From IMG/VR virus record IMGVR_UViG_2718218172_000010: 64,000 bases of DNA. One strand, written 5' to 3'. The stretch is from a virus. Its lineage: Duplodnaviria; Heunggongvirae; Uroviricota; Caudoviricetes. The notes beneath the pieces were generated by a model. The model did not search any database and was not told the origin of the DNA. It saw nothing but the letters and a program-made list of their open reading frames with translations. Shown one piece after another: positions 39,090-59,784 of this stretch (position 1 is the stretch's first letter; each line of letters starts with the position of its first letter). The position numbers and the translations under genes were made by a program.

Positions 39090-39189
39090 NNNNNNNNNNN
39101 NNNNNNNNNNNNNNNNNNNNNNNNNNNNNNNNNNNNNNNNNNNNNNNNNNNNNNNNNNNNNNNNNNNNNNNNNNNNNNNNNNNNNNNNN
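39090..39189. other. assembly gap (100 N)
   Basis: Exactly 100 consecutive N. Confidence 0.95.
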
Positions 39190-44421: not shown

Positions 44422-44658
44422 TCATGCTGCTGCTCCTCGTGATTCCTCAATTCGCTGCTGCATCCACTGCTCCACTTCACTTTTGTACCAGCGGCTGCTG
44501 CGGCCCAGCTTGATGGGTTTCGGGAAATGGCCTTCACTGATCAGCTTGTAAAACCATTTATCGGTCATGCCGGTGAAACTGGTGATGTAGTTCATGTCGA
44601 TCAGGGGATCCTCGGCACGCAGCAATACACTGTCGTGGCCTGTTATTGAGGTCAACAT
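44422..44658 (-). CDS. AlpA-like excisionase/regulator
   Basis: ...FTGMTDKWFYKLISEGHFPKPIKLGRSSRWYKSEVEQWM, resembling AlpA. Confidence 0.55.
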   Translation of the reverse strand: MLTSITGHDSVLLRAEDPLIDMNYITSFTGMTDKWFYKLISEGHFPKPIKLGRSSRWYKSEVEQWMQQRIEESRGAAA

Positions 44659-45545: not shown

Positions 45546-46112
45546 TCAGAAGTGAGGCTTACGAGGACGCCCTGCAGCAGGACGTTCAGGAACTTCATTG
45601 CAGCCGTAGGCACACAGCCCGTCTTTTTGCTCTTCTTTCGCCAGATAATGCAGGGCACCGCGAATATTATCGATGCTTTCAGGATCATTGTGGCGCACAG
45701 GAATGTTGATGTTGTATGTATAATGCGGCTGATATGTACAGCGGTGTGCCGAACCGCTGTTATGCGTAATAGACCGCCAGCATTCCGTAATCCGCTCCGC
45801 AAAGGGATATATTTTTTTAACCCTCTGACGATCGATCCAGAAAACCGCATGCGCATGAAAACCATGATCAACCGTCCATTCAATCACCCAGAAGAAGCCA
45901 ACGATATTTTCAAATTGTTCCACCTGCTCCAGCAGCATACGCAACTGCAATTCAAGCCAGCGATGATCAGGTTGTAAGAAATCAGGCGTATCTTTCCTGT
46001 AGAAGAAATCCATGCGTAAGGCCCGCAGGCAGGAATAGCGTGCCATCATTTGATTGATGTGATTGTCAAGTAAAGCGGTAAAAAACCAGTTTGGTGTGTA
46101 AGATTTAGGCAT
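45546..46112 (-). CDS. YfjJ/YagK-family HUH-like protein
   Basis: AGGAG SD; HAHAVFWI motif; 188 aa. Confidence 0.5.
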   Translation of the reverse strand: MPKSYTPNWFFTALLDNHINQMMARYSCLRALRMDFFYRKDTPDFLQPDHRWLELQLRMLLEQVEQFENIVGFFWVIEWTVDHGFHAHAVFWIDRQRVKKIYPFAERITECWRSITHNSGSAHRCTYQPHYTYNINIPVRHNDPESIDNIRGALHYLAKEEQKDGLCAYGCNEVPERPAAGRPRKPHF

Positions 46113-49581: not shown

Positions 49582-50313
49582 TCACCTGCCATCCAGTAGA
49601 CGCCCCGCTCCACGGCTGCAACCATAATTACGTTGACCAGAACCGTCATGCTGCTTCGTCTCATACTTCACGAGATAACGGGCTCTCTCCATGGCTTTCT
49701 GCATCGCTTCCACATCACCACGCTTGATCCAGAGAACAGCGGCTTCACCCGGCTTTTTGTCTGAAGCCTTCCTGGTTTCAGAACATCCACCCGACAAAGG
49801 CGTATCATCGGAAGAAGGGCGAGCATCAGATGATGCCGGTTTACGGAAAGGCGTCCGCCTGGAAAAATGAACCAGTCCATTACCCTGCCAGGGCTCAAGA
49901 TGCAGAGCGCTACACCATGCCAGTTGGATCAGCGTCGCCAGCGAAGAAGGAACGGTGAAATCCCCTGGCGAGCACCAGGTATCTTTGTTGAGCAGTAATA
50001 TCACGTGATAATGTTTCCTGCCTTTTTCCTTGCCAAACTCCCGACACCAGAAATAATGCAGGGTGGTTGCACGCACACGCTTGTTGGTACGTCGTTTTTT
50101 CCGCTGGTAAGCCTGAATTTTGGCTTTCAGGGATTCGAAAAAACGAGAAATCACCGCTGAATCCGGATCGGGATCCATGATGGTGACAGGCATATGCTCA
50201 GGGAAACGTAAATCCACCCGGATTAACGAGACGGCACGGTGTTGCACCAGGGCACTGTTGAGAATACTTTCAAAACGGGATAACCAGTAATCATTGTGTA
50301 TTGGTTGATTCAT
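49582..50313 (-). CDS. YfjJ/YagK-family HUH-like protein
   Basis: HYHVILLL motif; ATG with GGAGA SD. Confidence 0.5.
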   Translation of the reverse strand: MNQPIHNDYWLSRFESILNSALVQHRAVSLIRVDLRFPEHMPVTIMDPDPDSAVISRFFESLKAKIQAYQRKKRRTNKRVRATTLHYFWCREFGKEKGRKHYHVILLLNKDTWCSPGDFTVPSSLATLIQLAWCSALHLEPWQGNGLVHFSRRTPFRKPASSDARPSSDDTPLSGGCSETRKASDKKPGEAAVLWIKRGDVEAMQKAMERARYLVKYETKQHDGSGQRNYGCSRGAGRLLDGR

Positions 50314-50982
50314 GATGAGAGATCTCCGTTGATTTGGATTGACTTCACATCATTAATCGCCGCGGTAAAACTTTACGGCATCCCACCAATGAGCAACGCC
50401 AATAGCTCATGATTAAAACGGAATGAATCGTCCCGTAACGAAAAGATAATCCTGCACACGACAGCAAAACGTAAAACAACAGCATGAATGAGCTAAATGT
50501 CTAAAGAAAAACTGCCTTTTCACATTATTTTTCAGCGAGTAATCATACCAGCATCCCTAACATACGAAATCGCATCGTGATCGATCGCTGATTCGCCGAA
50601 CAACTGATCGAATACACCGGAATCTGCACTAACATCCTGATGGGTAACGGAAGACTAAAAAACCAGTGTTCTATTGATTGCACGGAATGCCTGTGCGCTG
50701 GCCTGACCAGTAAGCACAATTCTACGAGTAGTAAGATATCTACTCCAAAACCATGCGCAGTAGCCACCATATGTTGCCAGGGTGAAAAATAAGCTCAGAG
50801 CTATAGGGGAGTAATTCCCGTTAATGTCATCGCCGTACCTCAATCAGCTCACAAACTGGCTGAAACGTTAAGCTGAGGCCTTTATTCTTCAGATGTATTT
50901 TCCGGTTTACCTGTAAATTATCTTCTGATATTTATCACATTAGTAATTGTGCTGATTATCTACATACTTCAAGGTCTGAAAT

Positions 50983-51513
50983 ATGAAGCTAACAGAAGAA
51001 AGTCTGAATCTAGTCATTGACATCCTGAATGATTTGATCTGTGAAGGAAAAATGCTGAACGATGTGGAGCGCAGATCTCTGCTCAATGCAGTTATGGCAA
51101 TTACAGCGGTAAAAGAACGTTCTGTCGTATCTGTATCATCCCGAAAAGAGCAAAGTAAGAAGGAGAAGAAGGAAAGAGAGATCGATCCTCGTTTCCCAAA
51201 TGCTGGTGTGGCATGGAATGAGGCAGACGAGAGTTTATTGCGAGATGTTCTGGAGGATGTACCGGACGATGAAATTGGTAAACACCTTTTCTGGCTGGCA
51301 GAGAAACTAGGGCGAACCCCGTACAGTGTAGCCTGTAAAGTCAGACAAATTAAGAAATTACCTGCAGAATGGAAGGATCAATTTCGTAAAATCTCTGACA
51401 GGATCCGTAGTTCTGGAATGTCAGTCAGTGAATATCTACAACGCCAGGGACTGTTAAGCCCAGAGTCAGGGGAAGAAAACAATCCTGTCAGTCATAACAA
51501 CAATGTAGCTTAA
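50983..51513 (+). CDS. hypothetical protein (orphan cargo)
   Basis: 176 aa; acidic and Lys-rich segments. Confidence 0.45.
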   Translation: MKLTEESLNLVIDILNDLICEGKMLNDVERRSLLNAVMAITAVKERSVVSVSSRKEQSKKEKKEREIDPRFPNAGVAWNEADESLLRDVLEDVPDDEIGKHLFWLAEKLGRTPYSVACKVRQIKKLPAEWKDQFRKISDRIRSSGMSVSEYLQRQGLLSPESGEENNPVSHNNNVA

Positions 51514-52029
51514 TCCTGAAGAAGATGAACAGTTTATACTCTTTAAACTGTTCCCTTAATTTTAGAAAAACAGTTTGTGTAAGTGCATGCTCCAACATTC
51601 TGAAGGCGTTATTTCTTACAATACATCATAATCATTGGCAGATCCTCATCTGAATCAAAACACCACAACCAATCATCACACTTTTTCTGAAAAGAGTCTT
51701 ATGATGAAGATAATCACCTTACGCTGAGAAAAAACACCAGGGCCAGTTAATCACCTTATCAATCTCGCCGTTACAAAATCATCCATAAGCCATTTAACAG
51801 TGTTATCGCAAACTCACAGTAAATCGCATCAGGTTACCTCAATCGGATTTGAGTTAATTCACTGGGCTTTACGTAAAGATACTTTTCTCAAGCTAACGTC
51901 GAAACTCGAAATCTAAGGAAAGGTTAAACGTAACATCAGTAAAATCGAATAGCAGATTGATTGCTTAAACAGAAAGGTTTTACAGCAGCATTAAACTGAT
52001 TTAGTTAACGTAAAGATTTACTAAACTGG

Positions 52030-52180
52030 ATGTGTATAGCAATGCTTAACGAAAACACTTGTAGAAGTGTTTATGAAAATACGTGTATGTCTGGTAAAAC
52101 ACTTAGTAGAAAATACGTGTATAACACTTACTGAAATGCTTAGTAAAAATACTTAGTAAAATACGTGTATATAGTATCAT
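52030..52180. repeat. cluster of short direct and inverted repeats
   Basis: AAAATACGTGTAT three times, CTTAGTA three times, palindrome AACACTTGTAGAAGTGTT. Confidence 0.45.
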
Positions 52181-52676
52181 ACCGACATTCTCAACATCTT
52201 CAGACTTCCATACATACTGGGTGTTAATTTTTCACTTTTACAGCCAGCATGGAGTTTTCTGTCCTAAAAACAGAGCAGATTTACTCTGGAGTTATTTTCC
52301 TGTTCACGTATTCAGTACAGCAGAAATCCCGTGATAACGAGACAGTAAACCATCGTAATCAGCGTCTGTAACTCCATCGCTTTACCCCAGAAAAGTTAAG
52401 CCATATAATGTGAGGGATATAAGTCGTCGTATCCGGTAAGTACAGATAACCACAACATAAGCTCATTCAGTAAATTTTATCTCTGAACAAACGACTATGG
52501 CATGCTCATTTATACTATTCATAAGAAAGTGTGATTATCTGTAAGCATTAACCATCAAATCATATAACCATACTAAACTGGCGGATCATCAGCACCATTA
52601 GCAGGTAACTTATTGAAATTTTATTATGTGTTTTTTGTTGATAATTAATATGCAATATGAATTTGCTATTTTAGAA

Positions 52677-53900
52677 TCATGAACACCATTTAAAATTACC
52701 ATCATTAATATCATATAAAAATATATTTTTACTAAAACATGAATTGTATATATTTATTAGCTCAGGAAAATTATCAGGGTTCACCTTCAAATTAACCTGA
52801 ATGTTATGCTTAATTTCACCCAGTAGTTCTTCATGTGTGGATTTTATTATCCCATTATTATAATCGATAAATGCACACATGTTTTTTATGAATTCAAAAC
52901 CTTTTCCTGTATACAGTTTAATGAATGCCACCAGAGCAAACATTTCAAGATGTAGCCATAATGCTACGTTAGTTTTTTGCAAAGTATAAAAAATTGAATT
53001 CGCCACTTTTTTACTTATTGCTCTTTTATACTGTGATCGAGCAAGATTCAGTAGCGGAAGCTCTCGTTCAATAAATGAATGTGAAAAGACTGGATAAATT
53101 GATGTCGGAAACCTTTCAGGCCTTATGATATTTTCTATTTCCACCATAAATCTATCCATAGAAAGAAAGTCACTTTCTTTTTTTATTCTGGTATAGAGAC
53201 CGCCTTTATTCCTTTCTGAGGTTTGTTTTCGTGCTATCCCCCCTAACAATTTCTCTAATTGTTTATTTATCTTCGTATAATTAAATACAACCATTCTTCT
53301 TATCATCCTCGGAAGGATAATAATATCAGTGCTTGAATCACTTGAACGGCAATTATTATTTATCCATGCAACTTCAAGTTGCAGTATCGGAACATTAACT
53401 TTTCTGGGGTGAATATCACTCTGATATCGTTTTTTGTATGCGTTTTCATTAAGATATTCTCTGCTGTAGAGAAACTTATAGCAATATAATCTGATAATAT
53501 CTTTTATGTAAAATTTAAATAGTTCACCTGTAACAGATATATGTTTTCTGCTCAGTAACTCCTGTGTATTAAGCCATTCCCGTGACCGAAGCACACCCTT
53601 GTGAAAACTTTTTCTTACTTGCTTTGAGGCACGGCATTGATGTAATATTTTTGCGTCCTCAATAATTCTCTTTCCCGTTTTATTTTTTGCAGCATCTCTT
53701 ACTCCATAAAATATCTCCCGGCCCAGACTTTTGTCATATTTACTGATTATACGACAAATATTCCTGACCCGACGATTCTCTTTATTTCGCTTCCATAGCT
53801 TATAATGATCATCGCATAACCTTAAGGCATTTGCCTCATCAAATTCTGAAACAGGATTACTGCATTTTTTATTCCGACAAATACCTTTGTTTTTAGCCAT
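52677..53900 (-). CDS. AT-rich orphan protein with N-terminal Cys cluster, unknown function
   Basis: 407 aa, very low GC, Lys/Arg-rich; N-terminus CRNKKCSNPVSEFDEANALRLCDDHY; divergent from GTPase gene. Confidence 0.5.
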   Translation of the reverse strand: MAKNKGICRNKKCSNPVSEFDEANALRLCDDHYKLWKRNKENRRVRNICRIISKYDKSLGREIFYGVRDAAKNKTGKRIIEDAKILHQCRASKQVRKSFHKGVLRSREWLNTQELLSRKHISVTGELFKFYIKDIIRLYCYKFLYSREYLNENAYKKRYQSDIHPRKVNVPILQLEVAWINNNCRSSDSSTDIIILPRMIRRMVVFNYTKINKQLEKLLGGIARKQTSERNKGGLYTRIKKESDFLSMDRFMVEIENIIRPERFPTSIYPVFSHSFIERELPLLNLARSQYKRAISKKVANSIFYTLQKTNVALWLHLEMFALVAFIKLYTGKGFEFIKNMCAFIDYNNGIIKSTHEELLGEIKHNIQVNLKVNPDNFPELINIYNSCFSKNIFLYDINDGNFKWCS

Positions 53901-54000
53901 ACTCTTCTTCCCGTCAATGGAAAAATTTTCACACCCATATTACCTGAATGATAAACCGGATTAGTGTGATCCGGTTCAGTGAAATCAACAGGATAACGGT

Positions 54001-54885
54001 ATGTCATTCAGCCATTCTTCCCTCTCCGCACAAGTGAAATCATATCTGACGTTTCTTCCTGAAGAAATTCGCCAGAAAATCCTTGAACATCTCCACGGTG
54101 TTATTCATTACGAACCCGTGATTGGCATGATGGGTAAAAGCGGCACCGGCAAAAGCAGTCTGTGTAATGCCATTTTTCAGTCCCGTATCTGTGCCACGCA
54201 TCCCCTGAACGGCTGCACCCGCCAGGCTCATCGTCTTACCCTGCAGCTCGGTGAACGCAGAATGACGCTGGTCGATCTGCCCGGCATTGGTGAAACACCG
54301 CAGCATGATCAGGAATACCGAGCGCTTTATCGTCAGTTACTGCCGGAACTGGATCTGATTATCTGGATCCTGCGGAGTGATGAACGTGCGTATGCTGCCG
54401 ATATTGCCATGCATCAGTTTTTACTGAATGAGGGCGCAGATCCCTCGCGCTTTCTGTTTGTTCTCAGCCATGCCGATCGCATGTTTCCTGCTGAAGAATG
54501 GAATGCCACAGAAAAATGCCCGTCCCGTCACCAGGAACTCTCACTGGCGACAGTAACAGCCCGGGTGGCCACCCTGTTCCCTTCATCATTTCCGGTACTC
54601 CCTGTAGCCGCACCTGCAGGCTGGAACCTTCCAGCGCTGGTGTCACTGATGATCCACGCGCTGCCACCACAGGCAACCAGCGCAGTTTATTCACATATCA
54701 GGGGGGAAAACCGCTCTGAACAGGCCCGGAAACACGCACAACAGACTTTTGGTGATGCCATCGGGAAAAGTTTTGACGACGCCGTTGCCCGGTTCAGTTT
54801 TCCGGCCTGGATGTTACAGCTTCTGCGTAAAGCCCGGGACCGCATTATCCACCTGCTGATCACACTGTGGGAGCGTCTGTTCTGA
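54001..54885 (+). CDS. YfjP/YkfA/YeeP-family GTPase
   Basis: G1 GMMGKSGTGKSSLCN, G3 LVDLPGIGET; 294 aa. Confidence 0.75.
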   Translation: MSFSHSSLSAQVKSYLTFLPEEIRQKILEHLHGVIHYEPVIGMMGKSGTGKSSLCNAIFQSRICATHPLNGCTRQAHRLTLQLGERRMTLVDLPGIGETPQHDQEYRALYRQLLPELDLIIWILRSDERAYAADIAMHQFLLNEGADPSRFLFVLSHADRMFPAEEWNATEKCPSRHQELSLATVTARVATLFPSSFPVLPVAAPAGWNLPALVSLMIHALPPQATSAVYSHIRGENRSEQARKHAQQTFGDAIGKSFDDAVARFSFPAWMLQLLRKARDRIIHLLITLWERLF

Positions 54886-56189: not shown

Positions 56190-56289
56190 NNNNNNNNNNN
56201 NNNNNNNNNNNNNNNNNNNNNNNNNNNNNNNNNNNNNNNNNNNNNNNNNNNNNNNNNNNNNNNNNNNNNNNNNNNNNNNNNNNNNNNNN
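56190..56289. other. assembly gap (100 N)
   Basis: Exactly 100 consecutive N. Confidence 0.95.
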
Positions 56290-56520: not shown

Positions 56521-56927
56521 GGCATCCCGGCAAAAGGCCGCCGGGATGTGAGGGGCAACGCCGTTTCGCAAACCGCGCTTCACGTCGTTGCGGCGGGTCC
56601 CTGCCCGTTGTTGTGTCCGGTGCCATTCACCTGTTTAAGCCCCTGTCGCCGGGGGCTGATACAGCCACAACCGTCTCCGCCAGTCCAGGGGTGAAATGTA
56701 CATCCCGCAAAACTTTTTGCCCAAAAGCAGGCAAAAACTTTTGCGGTCTGCCCCCGGACAGTCGTTTCCGGCCGTGGCAGTGATGCCCCTTGCGGCGAAG
56801 GTTCTCAAAAAGGTGATGGTGAATACCGGAGGGAACAAAAGGCAGGTCCCCGCAAAACGTCAAAACCGCGGCTCCCGAAACTCAAAAGATGATGGGGGCT
56901 GAAAACATCAACAGAAGGAGATACATC

Positions 56928-57762
<835 letters not shown>

Positions 57763-57825: not shown

Positions 57826-59784
57826 ATGTCAGTTACAGAGTCTAAGACAAAAACGGAGCGTAAATCCAGCCGTAAACCGTCAAAAGAGCAGGAGACTGCC
57901 CTGTCTGCCCTGCTGGCGCAGACGGAGGAAGTGAGCGTGCCGCTGACCTCACTGATTAAGTCACCGCTGAATGTGCGCACGGTGCCGTATTCTGCGGAGT
58001 CCGTCAGCGAACTGGCGGACTCCATTAAAGGTGTCGGCCTGTTACAGAATCTGGTTGTTCATGCCCTGCCAGGTGACCGACACGGTGTCGCCGCAGGTGG
58101 TCGCCGACTGGCAGCACTCAACATGCTGGCAGAGCGTGGCATCATTCCGGCTGACTGGCCTGTCCGTGTGAAGGTCATTCCGCAGGAACTGGCGACTGCC
58201 GCATCAATGACTGAAAACGGTCATCGTCGGGATATGCACCCTGCCGAACAGATTGCCGGATTCCGCGCAATGGCGCAGGAAGGCAAAACACCTGCACAAA
58301 TCGGTGATTTGCTGGGCTATTCACCCCGCCACGTTCAGCGAATGCTGAAACTGGCTGACCTTGCGCCTGTCATCCTCGATGCGCTGGCAGAAGACCGCAT
58401 CACCACAGAGCACTGTCAGGCGCTGGCGCTGGAGAACGACACCGCACGTCAGGTACAGGTGTTTGAAGCTGCCTGTCAGTCGGGATGGGGCGGAAAACCG
58501 GAAGTACAGACCATTCGTCGTCTGGTGACCGAAAGTGAAGTGGCGGTGGCGGGGAACAGTAAATTCCGCTTCGTGGGGGCTGATGCCTTCTCGCCAGATG
58601 AACTGCGCACCGATTTGTTCAGCGACAACGAGGGTGGCTATGTGGACTGCGTGGCGCTCGATGCCGCCCTGCTGGAAAAACTCCAGGCTGTTGCAGAGTC
58701 CCTTCGGGAAGCCGAAGGCTGGGAATGGTGCGCCGGGCGCATGGAGCCTGTCGGTGAGTGCCGTGAGGATGCCGGAACATACCGCTGTCTGCCGGAGCCG
58801 GAAGCGGTGCTGACGGAGGCGGAAGAAGAACGCCTGAACGAACTGATGACGCGTTACGACGCGCTGGAAAACCAGTGTGAGGAATCCGACCTGCTGGAAG
58901 CAGAAATGAAGCTGATGCGCTGCATGGCGAAGGTCAGGGCGTGGACGCCGGAGATGCGTGCCGGAAGCGGTGTTGTGGTGTCCTGGCGTTACGGCAATGT
59001 GTGTGTCCAGCGTGGTGTGCAGTTGCGCAGTGAGGATGACGTGACTGACGACGCTGACCGCACGGAACAGGTGCAGGAAAAAGCGTCAGTGGAGGAAATC
59101 AGTCTGCCACTGCTGACGAAAATGTCTTCCGAACGCACGCTGGCAGTCCAGGCAGCACTGATGCAGCAACCGGACAAATCTCTGGCACTGCTGGCATGGA
59201 CGCTCTGCCTGAATGTGTTTGGCAGCGGGGCGTACAGTAGTCCCGCCAGAATTTACCTGGAATGTGGGCATTACTCACTGACCAGCGCTGCGCCGTCAGG
59301 GAAGGAAGGTACCGCATTCATGGCGCTGATGGCAGAGCACTTTCGCCTTGCTGCCCTGCTGCCGGATGAATGGGAACGGGACATGACGACGTTCCTGTCA
59401 CTCAGCCAGGAGGTTCTGTTATCCCTGCTCAGTTTCTGCACTGCGTGCAGCATCCACGGTGTTCAGACCCGTGAGTATGGTCACACGTCACGCAGTCCGC
59501 TGGATTCGCTGGAAAGCGCCATCGGCTTTCACATGCGCGACTGGTGGCAGCCGACAAAAGCAAACTTCTTCGGACACCTGAAAAAGCCGCAGATTATCGC
59601 AGCCCTGAATGAGGCAGGACTGTCCGGTGCTGCACGGGACGCGGAGAAGATGAAGAAAGGCGATGCGGCTGAACATGCAGAGTTCCACATGAAAGACAAC
59701 CGCTGGGTGCCTGGCTGGATGTGTGCACCACGCCCACAGACGGATGCCACTGAACGCACCGATAACCTGGCTGATGCCGCCTGA
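57826..59784 (+). CDS. ParB-like nuclease domain protein (652 aa)
   Basis: N-terminal ParB-like region; position between ssb and psiB as in IncF leading regions. Confidence 0.65.
   Translation: MSVTESKTKTERKSSRKPSKEQETALSALLAQTEEVSVPLTSLIKSPLNVRTVPYSAESVSELADSIKGVGLLQNLVVHALPGDRHGVAAGGRRLAALNMLAERGIIPADWPVRVKVIPQELATAASMTENGHRRDMHPAEQIAGFRAMAQEGKTPAQIGDLLGYSPRHVQRMLKLADLAPVILDALAEDRITTEHCQALALENDTARQVQVFEAACQSGWGGKPEVQTIRRLVTESEVAVAGNSKFRFVGADAFSPDELRTDLFSDNEGGYVDCVALDAALLEKLQAVAESLREAEGWEWCAGRMEPVGECREDAGTYRCLPEPEAVLTEAEEERLNELMTRYDALENQCEESDLLEAEMKLMRCMAKVRAWTPEMRAGSGVVVSWRYGNVCVQRGVQLRSEDDVTDDADRTEQVQEKASVEEISLPLLTKMSSERTLAVQAALMQQPDKSLALLAWTLCLNVFGSGAYSSPARIYLECGHYSLTSAAPSGKEGTAFMALMAEHFRLAALLPDEWERDMTTFLSLSQEVLLSLLSFCTACSIHGVQTREYGHTSRSPLDSLESAIGFHMRDWWQPTKANFFGHLKKPQIIAALNEAGLSGAARDAEKMKKGDAAEHAEFHMKDNRWVPGWMCAPRPQTDATERTDNLADAA

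Follow-up and report, generated by a model that had tools for sequence, protein, structure and literature searches.

Gene content of the interval

We analysed the interval at positions 50314–54000 of a 64,000-nucleotide stretch of DNA, the IMG/VR virus record IMGVR_UViG_2718218172_000010 (this whole stretch is called the window below). The interval lies in a genomic island, between a YfjJ-like gene and a YfjP-like GTPase gene, and is 100% identical to Escherichia coli strain cq9 and seven other complete genomes. The first-pass annotation, which was made from the sequence alone, had placed in it two convergent open reading frames (ORFs), at 50983–51513 (176 amino acids (aa)) and 52677–53900 (407 aa), with ∼1.1 kb of spacer between them, and had described the 407-aa gene as AT-rich and its product as rich in Lys and Arg with an N-terminal Cys cluster. 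All of this was borne out: the 407-aa gene has a guanine plus cytosine (GC) content of 32.6% (window, 47.6%), its product has an isoelectric point of 9.8, 18% Lys plus Arg and Cys at residues 8, 13, and 29, and the spacer is 1163 bp long. The same annotation had interpreted the two genes and their spacer as a defence cargo module in the variable slot of the island. As set out below, this interpretation is partly supported, and the two-gene reading itself does not hold. The features of the interval and its borders are collected in Table 1.

The 407-aa gene has a fixed position in enterobacterial islands

Relatives of the 407-aa protein formed 16 clusters in a word-indexed search of 5.8 billion proteins and 43 clusters at E ≤ 0.001 in a profile search of 1.84 billion representatives, and all family members with a named source organism were from Enterobacterales. 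Among six full-length relatives at 32–37% identity, 79 residues were invariant, and across 30 family members from both clades described below, C8, C13, C29, and H32, which are presumed to form a zinc finger, were invariant or almost so. The ratio of nonsynonymous to synonymous substitution rates (dN/dS) of the 407-aa gene, 0.26–0.37, indicates that it is under purifying selection. Because homologues of each of the two ORFs exist, and because of this dN/dS for the 407-aa ORF, both are real genes. At ≥90% identity the 407-aa gene was present in 976 of 5426 complete E. coli genomes, with the ORF intact in 968; thus ∼18% of complete E. coli genomes carry this gene, annotated as “hypothetical” or not at all. 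A phage or plasmid origin was rejected because the family had no match in 50,697 phage records and a single match in 72,556 plasmids.

Neither the 407-aa nor the 176-aa protein had a match above curated threshold in Pfam, NCBIfam, PHROGs, or PADLOC. For the 407-aa protein, structure comparison revealed no whole-chain match, helix-turn-helix, or repressor-like fold, a profile search of Protein Data Bank (PDB) sequences with the full family returned noise only, and no publication on the family turned up when its protein accession and gene names were looked for in the literature. The first-pass annotation had also suggested defence-system classifiers as a check; no PADLOC model (PADLOC-DB v2.0.0, 2023 library, E ≤ 0.1) matched the 407-aa or 176-aa protein, nine relatives, or the alternative cassettes described below.

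In all contexts examined, relatives from the clade of the window protein (the window clade) were encoded head-to-head with an arm beginning at the YfjP-like GTPase. The gap between the family gene and the GTPase gene was 94–105 bp in the window and in loci L002 (Citrobacter), L003 (Klebsiella), L005, L008, L040, and L043 and 184 bp in L009; L041 and L042 had no called GTPase, and the closest neighbour on that side was a WYL gene. AlpA and/or YfjJ-like genes came after the family gene in the window and in L002, L003, L005, L008, L009, and L040–L043. Because this position is fixed across Escherichia, Citrobacter, Klebsiella, and unassigned contigs, the 407-aa gene behaves as island backbone and not as the orphan cargo proposed at first.

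Homology to HNH nucleases and loss of the motif residues

Members of a sister clade, found in Enterobacter, Citrobacter, Kosakonia, Providencia, Yersinia, and others, carry an intact HNH motif (L.LE.CH.YPNS.GG.N...N.IIAP..INR..KD). The window and sister clades aligned over 365 columns (hhalign 99.8%, E 9.6e-30), so that the window protein is homologous to the sister clade over its full length, and LEVaW/F fell over LELCH and IRRM over INRM. The position of the catalytic His, which is His in the sister clade, is occupied by Trp179 in the window protein and by W, F, Y, or K across the window clade; that of the last Asn, a metal ligand and Asn in the sister clade, is Arg201 in the window clade; the middle Asn position is Asp in the window clade; and the PNSxGG loop is missing from the window protein. 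The window protein, unlike HNH nucleases, therefore has neither the catalytic His nor the Asn/His metal ligand of the helix, and a strand-strand-helix is predicted at the same place (strands E175–179 and E193–197, helix H198–219).

A profile of the sister-clade motif matched HNH nucleases in 10 of 10 PDB hits, each individually weak (E 0.16–1.3), among them McrA (aligned as YLEVHHVIPLSSGGADTTDN), Cas8f-HNH, Cas9, and an “HNH endonuclease.” In the alignment with E. coli McrA (PDB 6ghc), the sister-clade residues E-x-x-H-x-x-P-x-S-x-G-G-x-N...N...N-R-x-x-K fell on the active-site segment. Pfam HNH_4 and HNH_5 each gave weak matches to two members, no Pfam HNH model reached threshold, and NCBI names one family member “HNH endonuclease.” Profile and structure searches, another check put forward in the first-pass annotation, thus yielded no curated-library or whole-chain structural match. 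Overall, the clade alignment and the motif profile indicate that the 407-aa protein descends from an HNH (His-Me finger) nuclease, and the motif residues are lost in the window clade. From the presence of W179 and R201 in place of the catalytic His and metal-binding Asn, we infer that DNA cutting was lost as well, and the 407-aa protein would be a zinc-finger DNA-binding protein that no longer cuts DNA. Its N-terminal Cys-Cys-Cys-His (CCCH) finger and ∼190-residue helical C-terminal domain are without a described counterpart.

The sister clade also resides in islands. In Enterobacter the gene order is AlpA, YfjI (DUF3987), HNH protein, two small ORFs, DUF932, antirestriction, RadC, CbeA, and CbtA; Providencia and Kosakonia have the HNH protein between an AlpA-like gene and a WYL regulator, in that order, and in Providencia L032 antirestriction and DUF932 genes come after the WYL regulator. 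Genes that are evidently cargo (TerB, McrBC, TIR, and MmeI-type and type I restriction-modification) lie elsewhere in these islands. In L011 (contig LR733917.1, 5130 bp), possibly the whole or a part of a small plasmid, a motif-intact member stands between an AlpA-like gene and a gene for a ParM/StbA-type partition ATPase. The UniRef name of one member, P0016 from Klebsiella michiganensis, raised the idea of a reverse transcriptase or retron. No RVT, retron, or defence-associated reverse transcriptase model matched any member (among the 25 most-matched Pfam families in a scan of 30 members at E ≤ 1, and in PADLOC), and there was no Rfam match; the “Reverse transcriptase” label therefore looks wrong.

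Alternative alleles at the same position in E. coli islands

The first-pass annotation had regarded the interval as a variable slot for exchangeable cargo, and the contents of the yfjJ–yfjP interval do differ between E. coli islands. Islands L009 and L017 have a 376-aa gene in place of the 407-aa gene, and islands L008, L010, L013, L015, and L039 have a 310–320-aa gene with an overlapping convergent partner of 262–284 aa. Against the 407-aa family, the 376-aa variant aligned over its full length (hhalign 99.9%, E 3e-32) and a 316-aa variant over the central 178 columns (95.5%, E 1.4e-08). On these profile alignments, the 376-aa and 316-aa genes are distant homologues of the 407-aa protein, and the E. 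coli “variable slot” is mostly one gene in very divergent alleles. In the other E. coli variants, the genes beside the GTPase were homologues of the 407-aa protein. Exchangeable cargo was confined to the optional 176-aa cassette described below and to CP4-57 of strain K-12, whose equivalent interval between the YfjJ-type gene and the YfjP GTPase holds abpB/abpA (“anti-bacteriophage protein”), yfjM, and the rnlA/rnlB toxin-antitoxin. This K-12 cargo has no sequence relationship to the 407-aa gene, which, unlike it, is position-fixed across genera. The variability of the interval, like the premise about CP4-57, was therefore fairly described, and the 407-aa gene is not a swappable part of it.

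The islands are heavily mosaic, and in the comparison of E. coli islands, the GTPase sequence did not co-vary with allele type. In the alternative cassette (L008 4692–6427, L010 4751–6489, and L039 6651–8464), the two genes overlap tail to tail by 4 bp, and its 310–320-aa protein keeps Cys-His at the position of the HNH His. The pair had no Pfam match in L008 and no PADLOC match in L008 and L039.

The 176-aa gene is carried by an optional, independently assorting cassette

The 176-aa gene had been presented as the partner of the 407-aa gene. It lies in a cassette of ∼1.15 kb, the place of which is taken in other islands by unrelated DNA of ∼290–470 bp. The 407-aa gene was present in 976, the 176-aa gene in 671, and both in 543 genomes, where “both” means ≥80% of the whole interval in one place; from these counts, more than 400 genomes carry the 407-aa gene without the 176-aa gene. 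L007 and L016 have the 407-aa gene alone, and L039 has the 176-aa gene with the alternative cassette. None of the distant 407-aa homologues examined had a 176-aa neighbour, and none of the Klebsiella homologues of the 176-aa protein examined (51–64% identity) had a 407-aa relative nearby. These homologues occur in two unrelated contexts: in one, the gene belongs to an islet of two genes that occupies a fixed place in the chromosome and may or may not adjoin a prophage; in the other, it lies near a KfrA-like gene on contigs of ∼57–155 kb. At least one member of the 176-aa family, P0049, is plasmid-borne according to its NCBI label. Therefore, neither consistent co-occurrence nor conserved adjacency of the two genes was found: the 176-aa gene is an unrelated optional insert beside the 407-aa gene and assorts independently of it. 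The idea of a two-gene module, which the first-pass annotation itself had made to depend on conservation of the pair, does not stand.

The 176-aa gene was ≥99% identical in 670 of the 671 E. coli genomes, and the surrounding DNA differed by 8–27%. This near-identity between divergent flanks points to recent spread and suggests a recent sweep or repeated transfer of the cassette. In the AlphaFold2 model of the 176-aa protein, a helical hairpin at the N terminus is joined by a disordered, Lys-rich linker to a C-terminal domain of five helices. Homologues of the protein are called “DNA-binding protein” by NCBI, and a profile search of PDB sequences with the family gave noise only. Weak Pfam matches to NikA-like relaxosome accessory proteins were obtained over residues ∼132–157 in 9 of 21 family members (best E 0.0048).

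A conserved non-coding block with a repeat array lies in the spacer

The spacer, which had been counted as part of the cargo cassette, proved to be mostly common island backbone. A block of ∼670 bp at 51644–52315 occurs in 1863 of the 5426 complete E. coli genomes (34%), at up to seven places per genome, and is absent from K-12; among the matches listed, no annotated feature lay under it. Its identity is 73–87% between islands of every allele type, and that of the flanking genes is 90–99%. For a structured RNA in the block, RNAalifold on 875 alignment columns gave −32.8 kcal/mol, of which the covariation term was +0.99; this lends no support, and no Rfam match was found at E ≤ 1 in 50.3–54.0 kb.

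The spacer had also been called dense in repeats. One clear array (52040–52170) is present together with a few conserved two-copy repeats, and the density was overstated. The array consists of three exact copies of AAAATACGTGTAT, spaced irregularly at 34 and 48 nucleotides from start to start and interleaved with about six NNCTTAGTA units, and adjoins AT-rich DNA. Between islands the number of units varies, the alignment shows insertions and deletions of whole units, and parts of the block are sharply conserved. There is no DnaA box near the array, which makes a theta-type replication origin in the spacer less likely. An AlpA pseudogene, which would be expected there given that AlpA follows the family gene in other genera, was rejected: tblastn places alpA in the window solely at ∼44431–44655.

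The block sits between an HUH-type gene and an arm with single-stranded DNA-binding protein (SSB), ParB-like, and antirestriction genes, a layout like that of a relaxase, oriT, and leading region, and is therefore a candidate cis-acting site. That its surroundings might mirror those elements of conjugative plasmids is offered as an idea only. Like plasmid iterons and oriT accessory arrays, the array has clustered direct repeats of variable number beside AT-rich DNA, between the gene types just named; it differs from them in its units of 13–14 nucleotides and irregular 34/48-nucleotide spacing and in having no DnaA box or recognisable nick site.

The remaining part of the spacer, 52316–52676, is absent from islands with a 316- or 376-type allele and is 71–72% identical in other 407-type islands. 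A 19-nucleotide inverted repeat, 18 of 19 positions complementary, pairs 52381–52399 in this 3' spacer with 53395–53413 inside the 407-aa gene and by a rough estimate is unlikely by chance; as a conserved feature it was rejected because four other 407-type islands lack the arm in the spacer.

Borders of the interval and the surrounding island

The window is a piece of E. coli chromosome, in which the host island adjoins tRNA-Phe and is bounded by the yqgA and gsp/yghD genes. Between E. coli islands, nucleotide identity is 90–95% for the YfjJ-like gene and 93–99% for the GTPase gene; the next gene encodes, by Pfam, a WYL regulator. Within the conserved 75 bp upstream of the GTPase gene, at 53954–53976 and 25 bp before its start codon, lies a perfect inverted repeat of 8 bp (AACCGGAT-N7-ATCCGGTT), which resembles an operator or else a 5' untranslated region hairpin. 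Because this palindrome is kept across alleles, a conserved regulator, such as the WYL protein, is more likely to bind it.

The YfjJ-like protein at the left border has, as read from its translation, an HUH motif (H101-Y-H-VIL; HYHVIL) and a Tyr motif (Y213-LVK; the Y-x-x-K motif YLVK). A second “inovirus Gp2 family” protein at 45546–46112 has HAHAVF as its HUH motif and YLAK as its Y-x-x-K motif. HUH and Y-x-x-K motifs are expected of rolling-circle initiators or relaxases. Beyond the GTPase and WYL genes, the right arm contains an SSB gene (56889–57467) and a 652-aa ParB-like gene (57826–59784), both confirmed by Pfam; by analogy, these two genes and those for DUF932, antirestriction, and RadC proteins in related loci are reminiscent of the leading region of a conjugative plasmid. 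The window contains two runs of 100 N, at 39090–39189 and 56190–56289, of which the latter breaks ORFs to the right of the WYL gene, approximately where strain cq9 has an IS66 element.

Table 1. Features of the interval and of its borders, in window coordinates (pLDDT, predicted local distance difference test; TRF, Tandem Repeats Finder)
Feature	Position	Strand	Evidence or conservation
YfjJ/YagK-like “inovirus Gp2 family” gene, left border	49582..50313	-	Pfam YagK_YfjJ_C E 1.8e-36, REP_ORF2-G2P E 4.4e-09
Conserved backbone stretch adjoining the YfjJ-like gene	50314..50490		82-96% identity in nine of nine compared E. coli islands
Optional cassette with the 176-aa gene	50491..51643	+	Pairwise alignment with EcPF40; local BLAST against L007-L010
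176-aa acidic protein, putative stand-alone DNA-binding protein	50983..51513	+	AlphaFold2, pLDDT 77
Terminator-like hairpin, 10-bp stem and T-run, directly 3' of the 176-aa stop codon	51527..51553
Conserved, unannotated non-coding backbone block (~670 bp)	51644..52315
Iteron-like repeat array	52040..52170		TRF period 13, score 53; unique in window
Bidirectional terminator-like short hairpin, flanked by T-runs on both strands, close to the right end of the block	52271..52288		Largely conserved
AT-rich, 407-type-specific spacer on the 3' side of the 407-aa gene	52316..52676	-
407-aa basic protein, E. coli allele of a fast-evolving island family with a fixed position	52677..53900	-
Degenerate HNH core LQLEVAW...TDIIILPRMIRRMV	53244..53384, codons 173-219	-	Alignment with sister clade; predicted strand-strand-helix
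C8, C13, C29, H32 motif (CxxxxC...RLCxxHY), presumed zinc finger	53805..53879, codons 8-32	-	30-member alignment; pLDDT ~90
Conserved 75 bp upstream of the GTPase gene	53926..54000		95-97% identity regardless of the allele on the other side
YfjP-like GTPase gene at the start of the conserved right arm, head-to-head with the 407-aa gene	54001..54885	+	Pfam MMR_HSR1 E 2.3e-14

Discussion

We propose, with moderate confidence, that the island backbone has a mosaic junction in this interval, made up of a non-catalytic, HNH-derived zinc-finger backbone protein, an unrelated optional gene, and a candidate cis-acting block. The 407-aa family, as yet uncharacterised, shows a new arrangement of domains, which would consist of an N-terminal CCCH zinc finger, a central HNH-derived core, and a helical C-terminal domain. 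Its gene stands where an AlpA/YfjJ/YfjI arm meets a GTPase-WYL-DUF932-antirestriction-RadC-CbeA/CbtA arm, and the protein could serve as a zinc-finger DNA binder in the regulation, replication, or transfer of the island itself. The simplest place for it to bind would be the ∼100-bp promoter region that it has in common with the GTPase operon, and the extreme divergence of alleles between islands suggests that its recognition target differs from island to island. The 176-aa gene would have nothing to do with it: a stand-alone gene for a putative DNA-binding protein, which spread recently and came to lie beside the 407-aa gene by chance. The block with its repeat array is shared backbone and probably acts in cis, as a site to which a conserved protein of the island or the host binds.

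Several observations weigh against this proposal. K-12 CP4-57 has the GTPase without any member of the 407-aa family, which is therefore not essential to the GTPase arm, and YfjI is missing from some islands with a 407-type allele. The repeat units are identical in islands whose alleles share only ∼20% identity; because the same units stand beside any allele, the 407-aa protein is unlikely to be their specific binder, and a conserved protein is likelier. Binding of the 407-aa protein to any DNA target is deduced from sequence, and hypervariability at a fixed locus, AT-richness, and nuclease ancestry are also compatible with a defence gene.

Islands with a similar set of core genes are known from Pseudomonas, where IntY, AlpA, a Gp2-like protein, and RadC are treated as core genes, a variable region is placed between intY and the shared region, and most islands carry recognisable phage-defence systems (bioRxiv 10.1101/2024.08.29.610337). 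The island in the window is like them in its core types (integrase, AlpA, inovirus Gp2-like, and RadC) and unlike them in genus and integration site; a member of the 407-aa family is not reported, and “HNH” does not occur, in the text of that study.

Because hypervariability at a fixed locus fits both a defence role and a sensor role, we considered each of these as an alternative. The 407-aa protein, alone or with the YfjP-like GTPase, would in the first case be an undescribed component of an anti-phage or abortive-infection system whose alleles reflect an arms race with phage proteins. Consistent with this are the extreme divergence of alleles between conserved flanks, the low GC content and HNH ancestry of the gene, the abpAB and rnlAB genes in the equivalent interval of K-12, a weak PADLOC match of the GTPase to LeoBC (Eleos; E 1.1e-07), and the adjacency of the degenerate clade to the GTPase arm in every context examined. 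However, neither the 407-aa protein, nine relatives, nor the alternative cassettes matched a PADLOC model, the catalytic residues are lost, the position is kept across genera in the manner of backbone, the clearly variable cargo (restriction-modification, TIR, McrBC, and TerB) is located elsewhere in the islands, and the GTPase sequence does not follow allele type. We therefore regard a defence role as possible but unlikely.

Less probable still, and drawn by analogy, is that the 407-aa protein is an island-specific sensor or repressor that would silence the divergent GTPase operon and release it on encountering a phage or plasmid protein specific to the allele. The Stl master repressors of Staphylococcus aureus pathogenicity islands and phage-inducible chromosomal islands (SaPI/PICI satellites) are encoded divergently from the main operon of the island and are highly divergent between similar islands. 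Similarly, the 407-aa gene lies head-to-head with the main conserved operon across ∼100 bp and has very divergent alleles at a fixed position, the upstream region common to both contains the conserved palindrome at 53954–53976, and the product is a basic protein with a zinc finger. The likeness to Stl is nevertheless a functional analogy: the 407-aa protein shares no sequence or fold similarity with these or other repressors, has no helix-turn-helix, and has no known inducer or helper element, and the palindrome, being kept across alleles, is better suited to a conserved regulator such as the WYL protein.

We consider it improbable that the 407-aa protein is an active site-specific nuclease or nickase that acts on the neighbouring repeat block and so starts replication or transfer of the island. 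The sister clade does have an intact HNH motif and lies in an AlpA-YfjI operon, and a repeat array and AT-rich DNA are found 3' of the 407-aa gene. In the window clade, however, the His position is W, F, Y, or K and the Asn position is R, the same repeats occur in islands with unrelated alleles, no DnaA box is nearby, and the 34/48-nucleotide spacing is not a multiple of the ∼10.5-bp helical turn. Finally, that both genes are decaying, functionless passengers and the block neutral junk kept by recent common descent would agree with the lower conservation of the block than of its flanking genes, the missing RNA structure support, and the mosaic islands, but is scarcely credible given the dN/dS of 0.26–0.37, the ORF intact in 968 genomes at ≥90% identity, the 79 invariant residues among full-length homologues at 32–37% identity, and the sharply conserved sub-blocks and whole-unit changes in the block.

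Our preferred reading, that the 407-aa protein is a non-catalytic, HNH-derived component of the island backbone, matters for surveys of defence hotspots that treat the yfjJ–yfjP interval as a cargo slot, as they would need to tell a backbone gene from true cargo. The clades with the HNH motif intact and lost provide a natural pair in which the transition from a nuclease to a binding protein may be followed. About one-third of complete E. coli genomes carry the unannotated block beside the 407-aa gene, which offers a candidate for a cis-acting site in islands that have no established mode of replication or transfer. Tentatively, and with little confidence, we further suggest that the inactivated-HNH zinc-finger protein could be a new allele-specific recognition module, either as a partner of the GTPase in an anti-phage system or as a sensor that couples a phage or plasmid cue to the leading-region-like arm, with its hypervariability as the record of an arms race. 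If the hypervariability does reflect recognition of phage or plasmid factors, the locus would represent a new class of sensor.

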